A stretch of 64,000 nucleotides of DNA from Candidatus Giovannonibacteria bacterium (GTDB lineage: Bacteria > Patescibacteriota > Minisyncoccia > UBA11713 > 2-01-FULL-45-33), in NCBI GenBank assembly GCA_016432405.1, contig CP066687.1:515065-579064 (forward strand), given 5' to 3'. The notes below the pieces were generated by a model, which worked only from the letters and a program-made list of their open reading frames with translations, had not been told where the DNA came from and made no database searches. Positions 2,510-54,882 of this stretch are shown piece after piece; within the stretch, counting starts at the first letter, position 1, and each line of letters opens with the position of its first letter. The position numbers and the translations under genes are program-made.

Positions 2510-3070
2510 TTATTTAAAATCAAGAATTTTTAATAATTTTTCTGCTATTGCTCTCCTTTCGGGTAAAGATTTTTTAATCGAGAGTTCATATCGTGCCGCA
2601 AGGTTAATAATTTTGCTAAAGCTGATTTTGGCCACTTTTTGATTATCAACAAAGAAGATATACATTACTTTTAGAGTTTTTGAATAACATTCCCAAAATT
2701 CTAAATTTCTAGCCAAATAATCAAATAAAATTTGATAAATACGGCTCATTTTATATTTCCTCCTTTTATAACCAAAACCAATCGCCCAACAAATAACAGA
2801 GTAACGGCTTCGGTACAGATTATTCTTCATTTTTTCAGGGCGATTAGTCAAAGGTGCTATAGTCAAGCCAGCAAAAGCAGAAGCAAACGGTCCTCGTATA
2901 TACTTTGCCTCAATTAATAAAACTTGTTTTTTTCGTTCGACTTGTAAATCCCATCCGGTTTCTGACATACCTCTTGACCGATCTTTTCTCGTCCATTTTG
3001 CCCCTGAGCGTTTGGGGTCTAAAAAATATTTTTCCAAAGGATTAACGACAAATTTTTCTTCTTGCGTCAT
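2510..3070 (-). CDS. Hypothetical protein, possible PD-(D/E)XK nuclease fold
   Basis: 186 aa ORF in an AT-rich segment between groES and uvrA. Contains GWDLQVERKKQVLLIEAKY, which resembles a D...(D/E)xK nuclease core. No family recognised with confidence. Confidence 0.55.
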   Translation of the reverse strand: MTQEEKFVVNPLEKYFLDPKRSGAKWTRKDRSRGMSETGWDLQVERKKQVLLIEAKYIRGPFASAFAGLTIAPLTNRPEKMKNNLYRSRYSVICWAIGFGYKRRKYKMSRIYQILFDYLARNLEFWECYSKTLKVMYIFFVDNQKVAKISFSKIINLAARYELSIKKSLPERRAIAEKLLKILDFK

Positions 3071-3201
3071 ACTTTATTATCCCAACAATCAATAGCTCTG
3101 TTTTTGCTTATTTTGCTTAATTTATTAGGCGACACTTTTTTGCCATACACTGTTTTCTCACGATCGTGGCAAAACGATGTATGTAGGAAATCGTTATGAT
3201 T

Positions 3202-14821: not shown

Positions 14822-16048
14822 ATCAGCTAGAATTTTTCTTTTTTCTTCCAGAAGCTCCGAAGTGGACGCCTCAATATTTAAACGGAGCAGGTCTTCGGTG
14901 TTGGACGGGCGCAAATTGAACCACCAGTCGGGATATTCTATCTTGATTCCGTCCGAATATGACGCCTTGCCGTCAGTAAAATGCGCAGCGACTTTGTCTA
15001 TTATTTTTTCCTTATCTTTTATTTTGAAATTTATTTCTTCGGATTTAAAATAGCGCGCCAGCGGCTTGATGAGCTCGCTTAATGGCTTCTTAGTTTCTCT
15101 CAACAAATCCAACACGGCGAGAGCCGCGAAAATCCCAGAATCGGAGTAGAAAAAATCGCGGAAATAATAATGTCCGGAAAGCTCTCCGCCGAAAACCGCG
15201 TTTTCTTTTTTCATCAGCGCCTTAACAAATGAATGCCCCACCCGGCTCTCTACCGCGACTCCGCCGGCCGCCTCTATTTCTTCCCTAACCGCTCTGCTTG
15301 AAGGAATATCGTAGATGATTTTCTCGCCGGGCTTGGCGTATTTTCGCGCCAAAAGCGCCGTAATCATGTCTCCGGGCGCTGCTTTCCCGCTTTCGTCGCG
15401 GAACATCACCCTATCTCCGTCAAAATCAAAAGACTCTCCGGGTATCTTATCCGCCAGCGCAAATTTAATAATATAAGATTTTAAATGCGGGAAGCTCCCT
15501 GCCAGAAATTTGGTATATTCATCTGAAAAATCTTTTTTAACAACACTCCCGCGATTTTCAGAATTTTGGAAAATACCGCGCAGAGAATCATTTTTTATTT
15601 CTTCCATCCCCGAGCCGGCGCCGATAGAAACCGCGGATTTTTTTGAGAGCTTCATGCCATTAAATTCCGGCGGGTTATGCGAAGCAGTAATCATCGCGCC
15701 GCCGTCCGCTTCTGTTTTATTTAAGATGAAATAATGCATCGGCGTTGTCGTCAGCCCTGCGTCAATAATTTCCGCGCCCTCATCCGAAAGCCCGTCCGAG
15801 AAAGCCTCTTTAAGCGCTGGTGATGATTCGCGCGCGTCGGAGCTCACAACAATTTCCAACTTCTCATCTCTTACTTCTAACCTCAAATACCGCGCAAAAG
15901 CGCGGGCTATTTTATACGCCGCGTCTTCATTGATTTCTTCCGGATAAATCCCCCGAATATCATACGCCCTAAAAATCCCCTCGGGGGGTAGTGAAGCGCG
16001 AGCTCTACTACCCCCCTCGCTCCACGACTTTTGCGCAATTTTGTGCAT
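14807..16048 (-). CDS. Phosphomannomutase / phosphoglucomutase
   Basis: 413 aa. Active-site loop TASHNPPEFNGMK, N-terminal IFRAYDIRG. The N-terminus carries an in-frame palindrome insertion. Confidence 0.9.
   Translation of the reverse strand: MHKIAQKSWSEGGSRARASLPPEGIFRAYDIRGIYPEEINEDAAYKIARAFARYLRLEVRDEKLEIVVSSDARESSPALKEAFSDGLSDEGAEIIDAGLTTTPMHYFILNKTEADGGAMITASHNPPEFNGMKLSKKSAVSIGAGSGMEEIKNDSLRGIFQNSENRGSVVKKDFSDEYTKFLAGSFPHLKSYIIKFALADKIPGESFDFDGDRVMFRDESGKAAPGDMITALLARKYAKPGEKIIYDIPSSRAVREEIEAAGGVAVESRVGHSFVKALMKKENAVFGGELSGHYYFRDFFYSDSGIFAALAVLDLLRETKKPLSELIKPLARYFKSEEINFKIKDKEKIIDKVAAHFTDGKASYSDGIKIEYPDWWFNLRPSNTEDLLRLNIEASTSELLEEKRKILADLIMK
15983..16016. repeat. In-frame GC-rich inverted repeat in the N-terminus of the phosphomannomutase gene
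   Basis: GGGGGGTAGTG-aagcgcgagctct-ACTACCCCCC, encoding SWSEGGSRARASLPPEG ahead of the conserved IFRAYDIRG. Confidence 0.6.
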
Positions 16049-16084
16049 TACCTTATTCTATAATTTAGGCCTATTTTTAGACAC

Positions 16085-16113
16085 TTGACACAGCATTTGT
16101 TTGGGTGTATAAT
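16085..16113 (+). promoter_or_regulatory. Consensus sigma70 promoter
   Basis: TTGACA (16085-16090), 17 nt spacer, TATAAT (16108-16113). Perfect -35/-10 consensus. About 75 nt structured leader before the SD AAGGGGGTG. Confidence 0.65.
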
Positions 16114-16193
16114 AGGAGCAAGATGGCGTGACGCCGTCTGGCCTAAGGGAATAGGCCCTTAAGCCAACTTCTTTGACAAGAAGGGGGTGCTAT

Positions 16194-16655
16194 ATGTTTG
16201 GAAAAGCAAAGGTCCAGAAAATGGACGTAACTGAATGGTTCTATGCCGCCATTAAAACAACTGAGAAAGTTTTAGTATGCGCGGTAAAAGACATTTCTCC
16301 AGATTCATTTCAGAGCAACGAGCTTTATAGCATGAACATCAACATAGTTGCTAAGCCAGGAGAAAAGAGTTGTGCAGGAGACACAGCAGTAGAAAGACGA
16401 GAATTTAGACTTCATTGCAAGTTTAAACTAGCATCTTATGGTGGCCACGGAAGTGCCAATGTGATTTTATACTTCCGCAAGATCAGCACAAGCCAAGTTG
16501 ACCTTTGGGACGACGAACACAGCTACGCCCAAGTCAGATTTGGCAGTCGCGGAGATTACTTCTTTGTAATAGAGGGGTTATTTTCAGAACCTCGCATCAC
16601 TGAACGCGCCTCCTCATCTCAAGTGGGTATAGCAAAATGCTTTGAAACGGGATAA
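16194..16655 (+). CDS. Hypothetical protein (self-contained transcription unit)
   Basis: 153 aa from the ATG at 16194, preceded by the strong SD AAGGGGGTG (the track's 16173 start lacks an SD). Bracketed by a consensus promoter and an intrinsic terminator. No recognisable family. Confidence 0.6.
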   Translation: MFGKAKVQKMDVTEWFYAAIKTTEKVLVCAVKDISPDSFQSNELYSMNINIVAKPGEKSCAGDTAVERREFRLHCKFKLASYGGHGSANVILYFRKISTSQVDLWDDEHSYAQVRFGSRGDYFFVIEGLFSEPRITERASSSQVGIAKCFETG

Positions 16656-16671
16656 GGTCATCACCTGCTTT

Positions 16672-16708
16672 GCCGCCGAGGACAGTGCGCCTCGGCGGTT
16701 TTTTTATT
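16672..16708 (+). terminator. Rho-independent terminator
   Basis: GCCGCCGAGG-acagtgcg-CCTCGGCGG followed by TTTTTTTATTTT. Confidence 0.7.
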
Positions 16709-16757
16709 TTTACGACGAACGCGCGTTAAAGCCACGGTAAAACCGTAGTGCAAATTT

Positions 16758-16784
16758 CACCGCTATAGCTGTCAAACTTGCACT
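16758..16784 (+). promoter_or_regulatory. Operator-like repeat, copy 1 (GCTATAGC palindrome core)
   Basis: CACCGCTATAGCTGTCAAACTTGCACT upstream of the PaaX-like gene. Near-identical copy at 17414-17440 upstream of ychF. Confidence 0.45.
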
Positions 16785-16804
16785 AGTAATTGGCACGCGC
16801 TACT

Positions 16805-17380
16805 ATGGCATTAATGCGAAAACGTTATTCAGAACTGCGGATAGGTCCGACGGCTCAAAAAGTGGTGCTTTTGCTTTGGGGCGGTTTAGCGCTTGGGCTT
16901 ACGCATTCCCCGCGGCAATACTTTAAAATTATAAAAATGATTGGCAAAGAATGGCATAATATTAACCGGCGAGCGCTTTACAACGCCATAAAAAGTTTAT
17001 ACCGCTCTCGTCTCATAGATGCCGAAGATAATGCAAGCGGCGTCACCACACTTGTCTTAACCGAGCGCGGCAAAAAGAAAGCTCTGACCTATCAAATTGA
17101 CGAATTGAAAATACCGCCGATGAAAAAATGGGATCGCAAATGGCGCATAGTTCTTTTTGACATACCGGAGAGCATGAAAAAAGCCAGAGACGCCTTGGCA
17201 AGAACACTGAAAAACGCCGGGTTTATAAAATTTCAAAAAAGCGTATTTATTCATCCATTTGAATGTAGAAATGAAGTTGATTTTATTATAGAATTTTTTA
17301 ACGTAAGACCCCATGTCCGATTTATTACAGCGACCGAAATCGACAATGAACTTCATCTGAAGAATAAGTTTAATTTATAA
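16805..17380 (+). CDS. PaaX-family-like transcriptional regulator (winged HTH plus Cas2-like PaaX_C domain)
   Basis: Matches the PaaX C-terminal pattern W(x)RIVLFDIPE...R...L...GF...Q.SVF, with a wHTH-like N-terminus. The track start at 16790 is TTG; the first ATG is at 16805. Confidence 0.6.
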   Translation: MALMRKRYSELRIGPTAQKVVLLLWGGLALGLTHSPRQYFKIIKMIGKEWHNINRRALYNAIKSLYRSRLIDAEDNASGVTTLVLTERGKKKALTYQIDELKIPPMKKWDRKWRIVLFDIPESMKKARDALARTLKNAGFIKFQKSVFIHPFECRNEVDFIIEFFNVRPHVRFITATEIDNELHLKNKFNL

Positions 17381-17413
17381 CGATTATTGTTTACGAAATC
17401 CAATTACAAGTTT

Positions 17414-17440
17414 CAGCGCTATAGCTGTCAGATTTGCACT
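17414..17440 (+). promoter_or_regulatory. Operator-like repeat, copy 2
   Basis: CAGCGCTATAGCTGTCAGATTTGCACT, 24 of 27 identical to copy 1. Sits 35 nt upstream of the ychF ATG. Confidence 0.45.
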
Positions 17441-17475
17441 TCAGTTTTTAGTGCGGCGGTGATAAAATAGCGTGC

Positions 17476-18510
17476 ATGAAGATAGGAATTGTCGGCCTGC
17501 CAAATGTGGGAAAATCGACGCTTTTTCAGGCGCTGACGAAAAAACAGGTGGATACTTCAAATTATCCATTCGCTACCATTGACCCCAATGTAGGTGTGGT
17601 TAGTGTGCCGGACGAACGGTTGGGCCAGCTCGCTTCGCTCTGCCGTTCAAAGAAAATTGTCCCAGCAATAATTGAATTTGTTGACATCGCGGGGCTTGTG
17701 AAAGGCGCGGCCGAAGGCGGGGGTCTGGGGAATAAATTTTTATCCCACATCCGGGAAGTAGACGCAATTTGCCACATTGCGCGCGCGTTTGAAAATGAAA
17801 ATATCGCCCATGTTGCCGGCAAACCCGATCCCCTTTCCGATATTGAGACAATTAAAACCGAGCTCGCACTGAAAGATCTGGAAACTGTCGCGAAAATAAA
17901 AGCCAACGCTCAAAAAGAAGCAAGGAGCGGCAAAAAAGAGGCCGCGGAACTTACGCAAAATCTGGAAGCGCTGGAAAAGTTACTGCAAGAATCTACCCCC
18001 CCTCTCCCCCTCTTGCCAATCGCAGACCAGTATCAGCTTTTGTCTTTCAAGCCAACCCTCTACGTTTTTAATATTTCTTCAAAAGCCAATCTGCCTCTGC
18101 CGAACCTGCCGAACGCCATTTCATTGGATATCGGCCAGGAAAACGATATTTCGGCGATGTCTGATAAAGAACGGCGCGAACTCGGCGTCGAATCAGAACT
18201 GCCCAAGCTTATAAAAGCCGCTTACGAACTTTTAGGGCTTATAACTTTTTTTACCACCGGCGAGGATGAAACCCGTGCTTGGACAATCCCCTCGGGTTCA
18301 ACAGCCAAGCGCGCCGGGCGCGCGATTCACTCTGATTTTGAGGAAAAATTTATCCGCGCAGACGTGATTTTGTGGGAAAAGCTCATGGAAGCCGGCTCCC
18401 TGCCCGACGGCAAGGCGGGATGGGCAAAAGCCCGGGAACTGGGATGGCTGCGCTCCGAAGGCAAAGAATATATTGTGAAAGACGGGGATGTAATTGAATT
18501 TAAAATATAA
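17476..18510 (+). CDS. ychF: Ribosome-binding ATPase YchF (Obg-family GTPase with C-terminal TGS domain)
   Basis: 344 aa. G1 GLPNVGKST, N-term MKIGIVGLPNVGKSTLF identical in style to YchF. C-terminal TGS-like domain. Confidence 0.9.
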   Translation: MKIGIVGLPNVGKSTLFQALTKKQVDTSNYPFATIDPNVGVVSVPDERLGQLASLCRSKKIVPAIIEFVDIAGLVKGAAEGGGLGNKFLSHIREVDAICHIARAFENENIAHVAGKPDPLSDIETIKTELALKDLETVAKIKANAQKEARSGKKEAAELTQNLEALEKLLQESTPPLPLLPIADQYQLLSFKPTLYVFNISSKANLPLPNLPNAISLDIGQENDISAMSDKERRELGVESELPKLIKAAYELLGLITFFTTGEDETRAWTIPSGSTAKRAGRAIHSDFEEKFIRADVILWEKLMEAGSLPDGKAGWAKARELGWLRSEGKEYIVKDGDVIEFKI

Positions 18511-18988
18511 CTATGCTACCATAAACCCAATGGACAAAAGCCAAAATTTATACGAAATTGCCTATCTGGTAAGCCCGGCCTATTCGGCGGAAGAGGCCCA
18601 AAATTTTCAGCAGACCGTCAAAAATCACGTTCAGGCGTTGGGCGGGTTTATTGACCATGAAGGAGAACTCCTAAAGCGCCGGCTATTTTACCCGATAAAA
18701 AAAATGGCGGAGGCGTATGCGGCAGGATTTCGTTTTACTCTCGGCCCGGAAAAGATCGGCGAATTAGAATCACGCCTAAAAGCGCCGCAAGTGCTAAGAT
18801 CAATGATAGTCCACACCAAAAGACAGCCCGCTAGAACTTTCAGACCGAGAATAGAAAAAGTTTCCGACGCGGAAAGACCAAAGCTTAAACATGCTATCGC
18901 AGTGCCAAAACCGGAGCAACCAAAGCTTGAATCCGCCGCCGACATTGAGGAAATAGATAAAAAATTAGAAGAAATCTTGGGAAAATAA
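18494..18988 (+). CDS. rpsF: 30S ribosomal protein S6
   Basis: YEIAYLVSP core of S6. Gene order rpsF-ssb-rpsR. TTG start at 18494 has SD GGGGA; alternative ATG at 18530. Confidence 0.8.
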   Translation: MNLKYNYATINPMDKSQNLYEIAYLVSPAYSAEEAQNFQQTVKNHVQALGGFIDHEGELLKRRLFYPIKKMAEAYAAGFRFTLGPEKIGELESRLKAPQVLRSMIVHTKRQPARTFRPRIEKVSDAERPKLKHAIAVPKPEQPKLESAADIEEIDKKLEEILGK

Positions 18989-18991
18989 TTT

Positions 18992-19438
18992 ATGAATTTA
19001 AATAAAGTATTTTTAATAGGAAACCTTACCCGGGACCCGGAGCTCCGCACCATGCCCAACGGCAATCCGGTGACGAGCTTCGGGCTTGCCACAAACAGGA
19101 TGTGGAAAAGTAAAGACGGCTCGCAACAAAAACAGACGGAATTTCATAACATCGTAATGTTCGGGCGCCTTGCGGAAATCGCCAAGCAATATCTGCAAAA
19201 GGGAGCCATGGCAATGATAGAAGGCAGGATTCAAAACAGGTCCTGGGAAGGGCAGGACGGCCAGAAAAAATACCGTACAGAAATCATCGCCGAGGCCATG
19301 CAGATGGGGCCCAGGGGCGGAGGCGCTGGCAAGCCAACCGCCGAAAGTCCCGCTAAACAGGAAGAAGACGCCCCGGAAGTTTTAGCTACGGTCGAATACC
19401 CGGAAGACGAAATCAAACCAGATGAAATCCCCTTCTAA
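18992..19438 (+). CDS. ssb: Single-stranded DNA-binding protein
   Basis: 148 aa. OB-fold N-terminus NKVFLIGNLTRDPELR, acidic tail ending DEIPF. Confidence 0.93.
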   Translation: MNLNKVFLIGNLTRDPELRTMPNGNPVTSFGLATNRMWKSKDGSQQKQTEFHNIVMFGRLAEIAKQYLQKGAMAMIEGRIQNRSWEGQDGQKKYRTEIIAEAMQMGPRGGGAGKPTAESPAKQEEDAPEVLATVEYPEDEIKPDEIPF

Positions 19439-19634
19439 ACAGTGTTATTTTTGCGCGGCCAATATCAAAGTGGTTGATTTTAAGGACTCGCAGATGCTCC
19501 GGAAATTCATGACCCCGCAAGCGCAAATTCAAGGGCGCAAAAAGACGGGGGCCTGCTCGCTCCATCAGCGCAAGCTCTCCAAGGCCATCAAGCGCGCCCG
19601 CCAAATGGGCTTCGCGCCCTTTATCTCCCGATAA
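19422..19634 (+). CDS. rpsR: 30S ribosomal protein S18
   Basis: 70 aa, CYFC...KFMTPQAQIQGRKKTG...RKLSKAIKRAR is a typical S18. Confidence 0.9.
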   Translation: MKSPSKQCYFCAANIKVVDFKDSQMLRKFMTPQAQIQGRKKTGACSLHQRKLSKAIKRARQMGFAPFISR

Positions 19635-21083: not shown

Positions 21084-21605
21084 GGGTGTAATGTGATCAA
21101 TATATACTCACTCGGTATTGAAGAAATTAACAAAATAATCTCGGCAGCAGCTTTTGCTGTTAGGGAGGCCAATTTCTTATTTTCTAACACTAGCAACTGG
21201 ACAGATCGCAAGGGCGGATATTTCTGTCTCGCTGGGCCAGGGAGCGGATTGCCGCAACTTATAGTGCCTATTGGGAACATCTCCGAGGAAAAAGCAGAAA
21301 AGTATCTTTCTTTCTGCCAAGAAAAAGCTAAGCGCCTAGCACAGCATGCCGAACACCTAAGTAGTTGGGAAAGCCGGTGCCCAGACCAAAACCGATGGGG
21401 CGGGGCAGTCCGTGTCGGCGATTTTATCTTCTCAATGTCTGGTTTCCCAGAACTGGGCGATGAGGCGATTATGCTTGCCACAGCGGGGATATACTATAAA
21501 GGGTGGCAATCGCCAAAAGCAATTGACACTATAAACATCATCGCAGAGCGTAGCCAAAACCCCTATTGGTCAAATCTGCTTGCGTTTTTGAGCCGATGGA
21601 TATAA
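21084..21605 (+). CDS. Hypothetical protein
   Basis: About 173 aa. Reading the track protein MINIYSLG... against the sequence places a GTG start at 21084, preceded by SD AAGGGGGTG; the track coordinate 21093 seems offset. No family recognised. Confidence 0.5.
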   Translation, partial: GCNVINIYSLGIEEINKIISAAAFAVREANFLFSNTSNWTDRKGGYFCLAGPGSGLPQLIVPIGNISEEKAEKYLSFCQEKAKRLAQHAEHLSSWESRCPDQNRWGGAVRVGDFIFSMSGFPELGDEAIMLATAGIYYKGWQSPKAIDTINIIAERSQNPYWSNLLAFLSRWI

Positions 21606-21622
21606 TCACTAGCCCTGACCAA

Positions 21623-21658
21623 TCAAAAATCAAAGTTAGTGTAGGGCACATTCTCATC
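21623..21658. repeat. Direct repeat: partial duplicate of the ftsK 3' end
   Basis: TCAAAAATCAAAGTTAGTGTAGGGCACATTCTCATC is almost identical to 21786-21823, the last codons of ftsK (...VPYTNFDF*) read on the other strand. Confidence 0.6.
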
Positions 21659-21720
21659 GCCGCTTGACTAATCTCTAGCCAGCGGTTTTTTTATTCCGAA
21701 GCGCATCGGAGTTTACTAAG

Positions 21721-21762
21721 TTTACTAAAATTATAGAGCGATCGTTTTATAATTTTAGTAAA
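21721..21762. repeat. Perfect 15-bp inverted repeat between convergent genes
   Basis: TTTACTAAAATTATA-gagcgatcgttt-TATAATTTTAGTAAA, preceded by tandem GTTTACTAA GTTTACTAA. Confidence 0.7.
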
Positions 21763-21785
21763 AGAATATTCACTAATTAGCGGGT

Positions 21786-24026
21786 CTAAAAATCAAAGTT
21801 AGTGTAGGGGACATCTCCATCATCACCAGTTGCTTTTTTAGCGGCGGATTTTTTATTTTCAAATTCTTCGGCTTCTTCTTCGCCAACAACATCCTCATTC
21901 CGCTTGGCAGTTTCACCGTTAAGCGGCTCTCCAGCCGGCCTTTTAACCAAAACCTCTCTCGGCTTCGCTCCTTCGCCGGGGCCGATGACGCCGCGCTCCT
22001 CCAGCATATCCAAAAGCCGCGCGGCGCGGGCATAGCCCACGCGAAGCCGACGCTGGAGGTAAGACGCCGACGCTTTTTGCGCTTCCACCACCAATTTTTT
22101 CGCTCCCTCGTAAAGCTCATCGTCAACATCGTCTTCGTCCCATTCGCTAGCTGGCGGGCCGTTTCCTCCGGCGGGCAATTTTATGTCCAAATCAATCTGC
22201 TCCGCCTCAAACTTATCCCCCGCTTCGGCGGCATAGCTCGCCACTTTTTTCACTTCACGCTCCGAAATAAACGCTCCCTGGATTCTTTTCGGCTTTGACG
22301 TATCGCCGGCCAGATAAAGCATGTCTCCGTTGCCCAAAAGCTTCTCCGCGCCGGACATATCCAAAATCGTCCGTGAGTCCACGCCGGAAGCAACCTGCAA
22401 GGCGATTCTGAAGGTAATGTTCGCTTTTATAAGCCCGGTAATCACCTCCACAGACGGGCGCTGGGTGGAAACCACTAAATGAATCCCCACGGCTCTGGAC
22501 ATTTGCGCCAAGCGCACGATTGATGCTTCCATCTCGCGCGGATATGTGGCCATAAGGTCGGCCAACTCGTCTATAATGATTACGATATTCGGCAAAACCT
22601 CCTCGCGATTTTTCTCTCTAACCATCTCCGCGTTGTAAGAATTTATGTCGCGCGCGCCGGTTTCCGAAAGTCGTTCGTATCTTCTTTCCATCTCTCTCGC
22701 CGCCCAGCGCAGGGAAATAATGGCTTTTTTCGCGTCGGTTATAACTGGCGCGAGAAGGTGAGGAGCGGCATTGTAAATCGTAAGCTCAACCCTTTTTGGG
22801 TCAACCATCAAAAAACGGAGAAACTCCGGAGAATTTTTATAAAGCAAGCTGACAATTAAAGTGTGAATGGCAATTGACTTGCCCGAACCGGTCGCGCCGG
22901 CAATTAAAAGGTGCGGCATTCTGGCAATGTCGGCAAATATCGCCCGCCCGGAAACGTCTCTGCCCAAAGAAAAAGTCAGAGGTGCCGCGTTTTTAAATTC
23001 ATCCAAAGAAAGTAAGCTCCGGAGTCCCACGAGAGCGATTGACCTGTTGGGAACCTCTATGCCAACCAAAGATTTTCCGGGAATCGGCGCCTCAATCCTC
23101 AAAGGGTGCGCCGCCAAAGCCAGCGCCAAATCGTTATGAAGGGCTGTGATGCGGGAAAGTTTAACTCCCTCCGCCGGCTTCAGGGTGTACTGCGTAACCG
23201 AAGGACCGATGTTCACCTCGGACATCTCCACATCAATGCCGAAGTTCTGCAATGTTCTCTTTATAATGTTTGCATTCGCTTTTATGTCGCCAGACGAGGG
23301 CGTTCCCTTATCGTCTTCCAAAAGGTCAATAGGCGGGACGGTGTATTCAAACGACTTGCTTATGTCCAAACGCTGCTGTTTATAAGATTTTTTTCCGCCA
23401 AAGGCGGAAAAAATATTTTCTTCTTCATCCTTTTTTTCTTCAATCTTCGCGGGGGGTAAGGGGGACACGGAAGGAGCAGGCAGCGGCGCGAAAACTCTCT
23501 CTTCAGCCCTTTTTTCTTCTTTTTCTCCCTTTTCTTTTCTTTTCGGCTTTAAAGAAACATTTAGAGCGATTAAAAAGGACACCAAAAGAAATGCGGAGAA
23601 AATAAGAAGCGAGGCCCAAAAATCAAAAAGCCGGAGAAATGGGTAAGAAACCAAAAAGCCGGCGTATCCCCCAGTATATTCCCCGAAAACGATGTCCGCG
23701 AGCCCCAGCGAGCTTAATAGAAACAAAGTCCCGCCGACGGCAGTGGCGGCGACGAAATGCTCGCCTAAGGCGAGCAGAAAAGAAACGCCTGATAGAAAAA
23801 ACGCCAGAGGCGCAAGAAAAAAACCTTTGCCGAAAACAAAAAAAAGCGACCGGCGGGCGGCGTTGCCCACCATCCCCGCCCCGCCAAAATAAGCCATTGC
23901 CAAAATAGCGGAAACCGCGAAAGATAAAACCGCCCACAAAGAATGCTTCGTCTCCGGCTTTAAATTATGGTGCCAAGCCCCAATCCCCGCTCCGCTTTTC
24001 CCGTTATTCCGTTTCTTTTTGGCCAT
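21786..24026 (-). CDS. ftsK: DNA translocase FtsK/SpoIIIE
   Basis: 746 aa. N-terminal TM helices, motor domain with Walker A LIAGATGSGKS, C-terminal winged-helix gamma domain. Confidence 0.93.
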   Translation of the reverse strand: MAKKKRNNGKSGAGIGAWHHNLKPETKHSLWAVLSFAVSAILAMAYFGGAGMVGNAARRSLFFVFGKGFFLAPLAFFLSGVSFLLALGEHFVAATAVGGTLFLLSSLGLADIVFGEYTGGYAGFLVSYPFLRLFDFWASLLIFSAFLLVSFLIALNVSLKPKRKEKGEKEEKRAEERVFAPLPAPSVSPLPPAKIEEKKDEEENIFSAFGGKKSYKQQRLDISKSFEYTVPPIDLLEDDKGTPSSGDIKANANIIKRTLQNFGIDVEMSEVNIGPSVTQYTLKPAEGVKLSRITALHNDLALALAAHPLRIEAPIPGKSLVGIEVPNRSIALVGLRSLLSLDEFKNAAPLTFSLGRDVSGRAIFADIARMPHLLIAGATGSGKSIAIHTLIVSLLYKNSPEFLRFLMVDPKRVELTIYNAAPHLLAPVITDAKKAIISLRWAAREMERRYERLSETGARDINSYNAEMVREKNREEVLPNIVIIIDELADLMATYPREMEASIVRLAQMSRAVGIHLVVSTQRPSVEVITGLIKANITFRIALQVASGVDSRTILDMSGAEKLLGNGDMLYLAGDTSKPKRIQGAFISEREVKKVASYAAEAGDKFEAEQIDLDIKLPAGGNGPPASEWDEDDVDDELYEGAKKLVVEAQKASASYLQRRLRVGYARAARLLDMLEERGVIGPGEGAKPREVLVKRPAGEPLNGETAKRNEDVVGEEEAEEFENKKSAAKKATGDDGDVPYTNFDF

Positions 24027-54381: not shown

Positions 54382-54882
54382 GGCTGGGGATTTGGATTCT
54401 CCGCTCATAAGCCGAGTTCTGTTTAAATAGCCATCTGTCTGGTCCCGCGATTGCTCTGCGGGATCTAGCGTCCGACTACCGAGGTTAACTCGACGTCGGA
54501 CTTGCACCGGGCCCCGACGTAAAGCCGGGGTCCCGACTTCGCTATCAAAAATTTTAATAGTGCGTCGGGACAAGTGTTTTTCACCGCGCGCTGTCACCAA
54601 CGCGCGCTGTGAGCTTTTACCTCACCTCTTTTCACCCTTGCGCTATCAACGCTTCCGGCTTTAGACCGAAAATGATGACGTCCGCGGTATTGTCTCTGTG
54701 ACACTCTCTCGTCCCGCCGTTGGCGGGAGGTGGCCGTTAGCCACTGCCTCTGCCAAAGTTGCCCGAAGCGCAGCGAGGCCGCAACTTTGAGCATCCCGAC
54801 TTTACGTCGGGATTACCTTAGCGGTGCTCGGACTTTCCTCCCTTCCCAAAGCTTGCGCATTGTGGCGGGCGGCTATCCGGCG
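54382..54882 (-). ncRNA. rnpB: RNase P RNA, bacterial type A (M1 RNA)
   Basis: Minus strand contains GGAGGAAAGTCCGAGC (P4 5' strand/CR-I), AGGGTGAAAAGAGGTGAGGTAAAAGCTCAC (CR-II/III), ACAGAACTCGGCTTA (CR-V, P4 3' strand), and P1 pairing GATTCTTCGC/GCGGAGAATC. Consensus promoter upstream and terminator downstream. Length about 500 nt suggests lineage-specific insertions. Confidence 0.8.

Follow-up and report, generated by a model that had tools for sequence, protein, structure and literature searches.

The locus and its encoded protein

The stretch of DNA analyzed here, 64,000 nucleotides of contig CP066687.1 from a Candidatus Giovannonibacteria bacterium (the window), carries a gene for a 188 aa protein (ATG at 16814, 16814-17380, + strand) that lies between two related palindromes, U on its upstream and D on its downstream side, and is followed by ychF. 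An earlier note, made from the sequence alone, had described near-identical 27-bp repeats flanking this gene for a PaaX-like regulator. Both are found where it placed them, at 16758-16784 and 17414-17440, with 24 of 27 positions identical to each other, and are the sole matches in the window at up to 3 mismatches, 0 being expected from 100 dinucleotide-preserving shuffles. The motif does not behave as a widespread repetitive element, the outcome that the note had itself set against its proposal, two copies being all that the 64 kb contain.

The repeat is in fact longer, 45–53 nt with 75–80% identity between the copies, and each copy is a ~40-bp imperfect palindrome centered on GCTA|TAGC, of which the 27-mers are the right-hand parts. 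The upstream palindrome, a predicted operator, spans 16746-16785 (no strand) with its dyad at 16765/16766 and the core GCTATAGC at 16762-16769; in its sequence, TAGTGCAAATTTCACCGCTA|TAGCTGTCAAACTTGCACTA, 17 of 20 arm positions are complementary (20+20-nt arms, 85%), or 13 of 16 arm pairs by a second count. The downstream palindrome spans 17402-17441 (no strand) with its dyad at 17421/17422 and the same core at 17418-17425; about 13 of 20 arm positions are complementary (9 of 16 arm pairs), with the core and right arm intact and the left outer arm degenerate, and its center lies 41.5 nt past the stop codon of the regulator gene. The suggestion that a palindromic core fits a dimeric site holds for the symmetry, which is that of a dimer; the binding unit would be the 40-bp palindrome and not a 27-mer with an 8-bp core.

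In further comparing orthologs, U has 33 of 38 columns invariant in 5 loci of 85–91% protein identity, where the flanking intergenic DNA is unalignable, and D is likewise kept in 4 orthologs, unlike the neighboring intergenic DNA. As the columns are retained where adjacent DNA is not, the sequence itself, and not merely its pairing, is under conservation in the clade of the window. The half-site nGTCARAYTTGCA persists in relatives of 69–70% protein identity, in other genomic contexts.

The protein between the palindromes is composed of a winged helix (residues ~10–100, with the recognition helix at ~50–64) and a Cas2-like PaaX_M domain (~105–188). Pfam PaaX_M (PF20803) is matched over residues 107–180 at 78.3 bits (cutoff 24, E = 4.8e-22), the protein stops 8 residues past this domain, and no PaaX_C match is found in Pfam at E <= 0.1. 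The earlier note had claimed a winged helix plus a Cas2-like PaaX_C; the Cas2-like part of that claim stands, while the domain is PaaX_M and PaaX_C is absent. The domain searches that it had proposed give a divided outcome: PaaX_M is above its cutoff and Cas2 models are just above theirs (TIGR01573 at 28.0 against 24.5, model positions 2–43 of 96 only; PF09827 at 25.5 against 23.8, marginal, model positions 2–36 of 74 only), whereas the Pfam model of the PaaX N-terminal region is not matched in the 188 aa and the NCBIfam PaaX equivalog TIGR02277 reaches 32.1 bits against a cutoff of 264.55 (model positions 62–151 of 279 only). In PADLOC, several Cas2 models match the regulator and nothing else does.

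An AlphaFold2 model (pLDDT 80.7) displays a helical N-terminal half with a β-wing and a ferredoxin-like C-terminal half. Its best fold matches in the PDB are E. coli PaaX (8A39), with which it aligns over 141 columns, and Rv0674 (3KFW), followed by many Cas2 proteins; the sequence profile weakly matches the MarR/SlyA recognition helix, and PDB sequence searches returned only weak MarR and Cas2 matches plus a spurious IGFBP match. Residues D116, E119 and R125 are invariant in 36 sequences, and D116 aligns with the Asp of the β1 motif 'VVYD' in Cas2 SSO8090, a residue which is presumably catalytic in Cas2. The name mini-PaaX is used here for this protein, which joins a winged helix to a Cas2-like domain and lacks the effector-binding PaaX_C.

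The same 188 aa sequence is found at NCBI as a protein of a Candidatus Giovannonibacteria metagenome-assembled genome under the name 'CRISPR-associated endonuclease Cas2', which it received because the NCBIfam cas2 cutoff is passed. A role as the Cas2 of CRISPR adaptation is almost certainly not the case; no CRISPR repeat array is present in the window, and no cas1 is found among the called neighbors in the window or in the orthologous loci, which are housekeeping genes. A CRISPR context was rejected on the lack of arrays in the window, and a phage or defense context was rejected as well, with no PHROG match, PADLOC matches to Cas2 models only and no relatives in viral contigs. In the JGI annotation, some members are named 'DNA-binding transcriptional regulator PaaX' or 'phenylacetic acid degradation operon negative regulatory protein'. 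Both the Cas2 name that many members carry at NCBI and the PaaX-type names at JGI are misleading for this two-domain family. The genes near the regulator are trpS, a phosphomannomutase gene, a hypothetical gene, ychF, rpsF, ssb, rpsR and recA, and paa genes are not among them.

Palindromes flanking the family's genes

The mini-PaaX family comprises 732 matches in a database clustered at 90% identity and, among 50%-identity representatives, 432 clusters with E <= 1e-30 (2,687 with E <= 1e-10), nearly all 180–200 aa in length. Scanning one genome per species gave at least 585 loci, of which the best 80 were taken; these represent many Patescibacteria lineages, often with 2–4 paralogs per assembly. 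Upon reading the upstream regions, a long palindrome with a conserved center and variable arms is seen before nearly every homolog. Counts were made in 78 loci with significance set at the 99th percentile of shuffled upstream regions, and alternatively with sites at a score >= 8 and D of the window added by hand, so that they are given as ranges: a palindrome lies <=160 nt upstream of the start codon in 45–47 of the 78 loci, within ~220 nt after the stop codon in 49–51, and on both flanks in 31–35, where the U-to-D spacing is 612–787 bp (median 660). With the strict core RCKATMGY and a score >= 10 (77 loci), there are 2.7 sites/kb upstream and 2.0/kb downstream compared to 0.018/kb in the other 381 kb, a density more than 100-fold higher at the flanks of the gene than elsewhere in the same loci. 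Seven palindromes make up the 'elsewhere' set, and at least one of these belongs to a further, more distant paralog as its upstream site.

Locus L078 contains such a more divergent second paralog at 854-1420, a protein of 188 aa (with ...WDGWWRIIVFDIPETKRFGRD...) encoded 1.6 kb upstream of the paralog that defines the locus. It has its own ACGATCGT palindrome at 833-870 and obeys the pairing of Arg122 with T at position 4 that is described below.

Reading outward from the dyad, the core has T at position 1 (0.90), C or A at position 2 (0.66/0.32), G at position 3 (0.97) and C or T at position 4 (0.62/0.32), giving the 8-bp family consensus RCKAT|MGY. Positions 7–15 hold a mere 0.1–0.5 bit of sequence information, yet they are 91–97% self-complementary, and as complementarity decays past position 20, the unit is ~40 bp long. 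U and D of the same locus share 77% identity across +/-20 bp, whereas arms of different loci are unrelated (~33% identity), including those of paralogs in one genome with 46–76% protein identity. Arm similarity holds a weak global correlation with identity of either the winged helix or the Cas2-like domain (rho 0.05–0.10) and is at background below ~60% protein identity. Where the core is asymmetric, the orientations of U and D relative to each other are mixed, both direct and inverted.

Covariation between protein and site

Every variable protein column was compared with every DNA position in ~58–60 loci. The strongest result by far pairs residue 122, which lies in 'DIPExxK' in the first turn of helix α1 of the Cas2-like domain, with core position 4: Lys occurs with C in 37 loci, Arg with T in 15 and His with T in 1, with 5 exceptions, corresponding to a mutual information of 0.75 bit and z = 20.5. 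The runner-up protein column for this DNA position reaches z = 4.9 and serves as an internal control, since all columns share the same phylogeny. On the protein tree, the two characters undergo 9 and 10 independent changes and are concordant in 52 of 53 loci. Among closest disjoint pairs of loci, those differing at residue 122 differ at position 4 in 17 of 17 cases, compared to 5 of 28 for pairs with the same residue.

Four further Arg122 proteins, from outside the first set, have T or G at position 4 and never C, their cores being ACGATCGT in L108 and CCGATCGG in L105, L106 and L107. L105 is a ychF-linked ortholog of the window protein with 68% identity and window-like arms, in which the core has gone from GCTATAGC to CCGATCGG alongside K122R. 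At least one simple residue-base rule holds, in which Lys122 goes with G:C at +/-4 and Arg122 with another base pair.

A second pairing is seen in the winged helix, where residue 57 of the predicted recognition helix (NRRALY-N-AIKS) covaries with arm position 13 and more weakly with positions 12 and 15. Arg is found with G in 22 loci, Asn or Lys with T in 12, Gln with A in 3, and Glu, Asp, Ser or Thr with C in 5 (z = 8.2). Pairs of loci differing at residue 57 differ at position 13 in 20 of 25 cases, compared to 14 of 27 for pairs that do not, and neighboring residues of the helix have no such effect. Arg-G, Gln/Asn-A and Asp/Glu-C are familiar residue-base preferences, and the pairings of residue 57 follow them. 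From these pairings, K122R combined with a change of the core from GCTATAGC to ACTATAGT or CCTATAGG would be expected to swap preference, and N57R to favor G at position 13.

Given the more than 100-fold enrichment at the flanks together with the residue-base covariation, U and D are very probably cognate sites bound by the protein whose gene they bracket. It could be supposed instead that the repeats are sites of another factor, or a duplicated promoter segment, and bear no relation to this protein: a -35-like TTGCAC is present in the right arm of both copies in the window, where the core motif on its own is not over-represented (15 occurrences against 15 expected). The arms, however, change with each paralog while U and D of one locus match, the site covaries with residues of the protein, and the palindromes are concentrated at the flanks of this family, so that an unrelated origin is extremely improbable.

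A different proposal would place the function in RNA, with the palindromes acting as hairpins, whether intrinsic terminators, processing sites or mRNA-stabilizing stem-loops at transcript ends. Its appeal lies in arms that are highly self-complementary with poorly conserved sequence, in the runs of A to the left and of T to the right that flank many palindromes at positions 19–21, and in the location of D and of solo copies (below) just past stop codons. Against this, no excess of G.U over A.C is seen on the sense strand (12 versus 14 for U, 22 versus 13 for D), and half of the mismatches are non-wobble. T is no more frequent after D than in the background (2.67 versus 2.57 per 8 nt), TTTT occurs in only 16%, and the mean GC is 0.34. 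As the -35 sits in U, this palindrome would be largely untranscribed from its own promoter; D of the window folds no better than shuffles (z = -0.05) and U only modestly so (z = -2.65), and no Rfam match is found at E <= 1 in 15500-19500. Protein-DNA covariation is not expected of an RNA structure either. Intrinsic termination in particular was rejected, given the low GC, the lack of a T-tract after D, the unfolded D of the window and the absence of both palindromes from the terminator scan. The RNA hairpin or terminator reading is not supported and is regarded as very unlikely.

Proposed mechanism and its rivals

The upstream palindrome overlaps a predicted promoter of the regulator gene (16778-16806, + strand). 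The -35 hexamer TTGCAC (16778-16783) falls within the right arm of U and is separated by 17 bp from the -10 hexamer TACTAT (16801-16806), which orthologs retain as TAYYAT. Since only 7 nt separate the predicted -10 from the ATG, the mRNA looks leaderless. This geometry recurs in relatives: in U sites of the family, -10-like hexamers peak 33–36 nt from the dyad (22 of 47) and the start codon is typically 45–52 nt away, while a second class of U sites has a -10-like hexamer within the arm at positions 15–20. The autoregulation that the earlier note had suggested from the first copy agrees with this overlap, and since the -35 lies inside U, binding there would occlude the promoter and result in negative autoregulation. 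Autorepression at U is accordingly considered probable, at a lower level of confidence than the assignment of the sites to the protein.

In both the regulator gene and ychF, exactly 7 nt separate the end of a -10-like hexamer from the ATG, and no Shine-Dalgarno-like sequence is present (16801-16816 and 17460-17478); the same is found in L014 (3590-3612), L031, L009 and L005. This suggests that leaderless mRNAs may be common in these Giovannonibacteria.

A mechanism can be proposed in which a homodimer would be centered on the dyad in each of the ~40-bp palindromes, with the Cas2-like dimer touching the conserved 8-bp core RCKAT|MGY and the two recognition helices, one per arm, reading the locus-specific bases ~12–15 bp out. 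At U, the bound dimer would exclude RNA polymerase. The second copy of the same putative operator, ~40 bp past the stop codon, belongs to the module; it may anchor a loop with U, act as a roadblock or insulator where the gene ends, and/or control the promoter of the next gene. The best explanation of the whole is that the palindromes are cognate duplex-DNA operators of a minimal PaaX-type transcription factor without an effector domain, to which a probability of roughly 0.6 is assigned.

Much of this working is already known from PaaX, in which a winged helix and a Cas2-like dimer act on a ~39–40-bp operator of two half-sites through promoter occlusion. In E. coli, the operator of PaaX has two inverted half-sites within 39 bp (TGATTC-N27-GAATCA); PaaX is autoregulated, and repression comes about through competition with RNA polymerase for the promoter (PMC9493321). 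The PaaX proteins of the phenylacetate catabolon in E. coli and Pseudomonas (8A39, 3L09) also have a winged helix followed by a Cas2-like PaaX_M, and the 39-bp span of the E. coli operator matches that of the 40-bp palindromes here, which are putative operators with a -35 in the arm. Unlike PaaX, mini-PaaX lacks the C-terminal domain that responds to the effector phenylacetyl-CoA (188 aa compared to 305 residues in the 8A39 chain); as its TIGR02277 score is also far below cutoff and no paa genes are nearby, it is not a PaaX equivalog. Its putative operator further differs in that the palindrome extends over the whole length and has a conserved 8-bp core covarying with a residue of the Cas2-like domain, where the corresponding domain of PaaX has been described only as a dimerization motif. 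A second operator after its own stop codon and several paralogs per genome with private arms also set mini-PaaX apart. Cas2 and VapD nucleases share the ferredoxin-like fold, the β1 'hhhhD' and 'Q.SVF' motifs and, through mini-PaaX itself, a passed NCBIfam cas2 cutoff; the differences are that mini-PaaX is fused to a DNA-binding domain, matches only the N-terminal half of Cas2 models and has neither an array nor cas1. A looser analogy may be drawn with repressors of the λ type (OL/OR looping), whose gene likewise lies between cognate operators that are separated by a few hundred bp to a few kb, with one operator over its own promoter; their fold is unrelated, the operators here would be one long palindrome per side and not triplets, and no evidence of higher-order oligomers or looping is found here.

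Several observations weigh against the operator reading as a whole, and are gathered here. The covariation of residue 57 is modest, and that of residue 122 would fit readout of a hairpin stem as well. The invariant acidic residues D116 and E119, beside a residue that reads DNA, are unusual for a plain repressor. Differences between U and D within a locus are often mirrored in the other arm, with 85 compensated double changes where independent evolution of the arms would give ~13, a count that is biased by the selection of good palindromes, though the effect is large nonetheless; symmetry of the arms is thus greater than what the specificity of one protein requires. The promoters and leaderless starts are predicted from sequence and do not appear in a generic promoter scan, in which the regulator promoter falls below the 9/12 threshold. 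In the 64-kb window, searches with the 27-mer and with the 12-nt half-site found no further site, so that no regulon is visible: an isolated half-site with one mismatch at 54495 is within chance, and a strict 34-nt consensus has no match in the fetched loci.

The remaining points of this kind concern the downstream site. D is present at 29 of 37 loci with a co-directional next gene and also at 11 of 20 loci with a convergent next gene; because of the latter, serving as a promoter operator is not its general function. The distance from D to the -10 of ychF varies as well, at 42 nt in the window, 34 in L014 and 46 in L105, whereas the center of D remains steady at +39 to +42 from the stop codon of the regulator gene (window, L081, L082, L085, L105). 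The co-directional neighbors are assorted housekeeping genes (L21 four times, YchF twice, helicases, TsaD, KsgA, TruB, RNase HII and others), and no functional theme was found among the neighbors of the family.

In the window, the gene after D is indeed ychF, as the earlier note had read it (17476-18510, + strand, 344 aa; YchF-GTPase_C at 2.7e-29 and MMR_HSR1 at 7.8e-22). A predicted extended -10, TGATAAAAT, lies at 17460-17468 on the + strand with the ATG 7 nt further, and is kept as TG(A/C)TAA(A/T/G)AT in 4 orthologs; as its hexamer starts 42 nt past the D dyad, D would fall at about -74 to -34 of the ychF promoter. In the ychF-linked locus L014, the offset of 34 copies the geometry of U sites. 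An influence of D on ychF is possible, as is co-transcription of ychF and the regulator gene. The further step from a second copy ahead of ychF to a regulon does not follow, given that D is a trait of the family whatever gene comes next, its distance to ychF varies and the window holds no other sites. The downstream site belongs to the regulator module and may act on the next gene in some loci, with L014 as the best case; a direct effect on ychF is a tentative proposal, somewhat more doubtful than not.

The properties that fit a plain repressor least well lend themselves to an enzymatic reading, in which the Cas2-like domain reads the core (residue 122 with base pair +/-4) and its dimer, placed over the central ApT by the two winged helices, may nick, cleave or recombine the palindrome, possibly as an extruded cruciform. 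In that case the site-gene-site unit would now act, or would once have acted, as a recombination switch or as a cassette that is selfish or mobile, and solo palindromes would be its scars or targets. The Cas2 model TIGR01573 is matched above cutoff, as are several PADLOC Cas2 models; the β1 Asp D116 is retained, and it is invariant together with E119 and R125 beside the core-reading residue. The self-complementarity of the palindromes, far beyond the needs of the specificity of one protein and with compensated changes, and the bracketing of the gene whatever the orientation of its neighbors, also point in this direction.

Solo palindromes in the window bear on the same question. One, catacactgttttctcACGATCGTggcaaaacgatgtatg at 3144-3183, has 12 of 16 arm pairs and a core of the family type with other arms; its center is ~39 nt past the stop codon of uvrA (3202, - strand) and ~93 nt upstream of ORF 2510-3070 (- strand), which has no Pfam match and has its own -10-like ATAATA right before the ATG, so that the palindrome is off the promoter. 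The other, tttactaaaattatagaGCGATCGTtttataattttagtaaa at 21721-21762, has an arm of 21 with 2 mismatches and again a core of the family type with different arms; it lies between the convergent ORF 21093-21605 (+) and ftsK (21786-24026, -), with its center ~45 nt past the ftsK stop codon. A 33-nt direct repeat flanks it (21626-21658 and 21789-21821) and duplicates the last codons of ftsK, the first copy still reading ...VPYTNFDF* (context 21620-21825), which looks like an insertion or att-like scar. Neither solo palindrome is at a promoter, which hints at a function at 3' ends or at scars of lost cassettes.

A metagenome scan with the 21-mer GCKATAGCNGTCARAYTTGCA returned 19 stretches, of which 7 are true sites (5 at orthologs of the gene and 2 solo). 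Two metagenome contigs with a solo palindrome, L096 (1-1188) and L103 (300-1210), are identical rightwards from TTTCAGC, just left of the solo core (...TTTCAGCGCTATAGCTGTCAAACTTGCA...), for several hundred bp into a RelE/ParE-like gene and are unrelated further left. L096 also has a second copy of the palindrome, with its core at 229, and a local duplication by which the C-terminal part of the toxin gene is repeated over 41 aa. The boundary of the rearrangement thus lies at the palindrome, a few nt left of its core, which counts in favor of the enzymatic reading; no family gene is present on these short contigs. The other 12 stretches were rejected as chance matches, being non-palindromic, on unrelated contigs and mostly visibly inside coding regions; such matches occur in L088, L091, L092, L099, L095 and L101, with ...GKAIAVKLA... 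(short-chain dehydrogenases) and ...AAIAVKFAL... (γ-glutamyltranspeptidase-like) among the encoded peptides. Motif searches by pattern only are mostly false positives unless symmetry of the left arm is also demanded.

Mobility and catalysis are opposed by other data. Paralogs in one genome are 46–76% identical with unrelated arms, and no near-identical copies were seen. The linkage to ychF is kept in L014, L081, L082, L093 and L105 at 58–100% protein identity, indicating vertical inheritance. No relatives occur in viral contigs, no PHROG is matched, and the orientation of asymmetric cores in U and D is mixed. The closest fold is that of PaaX, a repressor, and D of the window is unable to form a stable hairpin. 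REP/RAYT systems offer a partial analogy, in which a single gene is likewise flanked by family-specific palindromes with occasional solo intergenic copies; mini-PaaX has no HUH/Y1 transposase domain (only PaaX_M and Cas2 are found), and its site occurs as two copies in 64 kb and is not dispersed. A mobile element of the REP/RAYT or IS type was rejected on the lack of a transposase domain and on the diverged paralogs with different arms. The enzymatic reading is considered unlikely, though less so than either an RNA structure or an unrelated factor; if true, it would reveal a novel class of Cas2-derived nucleases or recombination modules that are site-specific and sequence-programmable, each lying between its own targets, and would bear on the relationship between Cas2 and PaaX.

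On the left, the module is bounded by a terminator-like hairpin with a T-run at 16672-16709 (+ strand), which closes the upstream ORF 16173-16655; it has a 10-pair stem with 8 GC pairs followed by TTTTTTTATTT, and is kept in orthologs. The ORF itself is hypothetical, with no Pfam, NCBIfam, PADLOC or PHROG match, and its called length varies among the close orthologous loci of the window, L081 and L082 (160, 81 and 117 aa); it is either fast-evolving or no real gene.

In a literature search, no work was found that connects PaaX to Cas2 or to Patescibacteria (candidate phyla radiation, CPR), and the site-gene-site module, which is present across hundreds of Patescibacteria genomes, is apparently undescribed. 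Compared to the PaaX paradigm, what is new is a pair of putative operators bracketing the gene, a core that is apparently read by the Cas2-like domain, and a lineage-specific expansion of paralogs with private arms. Recognition of the family corrects a systematic annotation error, as the Cas2 misnaming could cause CRISPR components to be overcounted in these lineages. Patescibacteria have tiny genomes with very few recognizable transcription factors and almost no experimentally characterized regulation; the mini-PaaX family is a testable system for regulation in uncultivated bacteria, for the use of the Cas2 fold in DNA recognition and for the diversification of operator specificity among paralogs.

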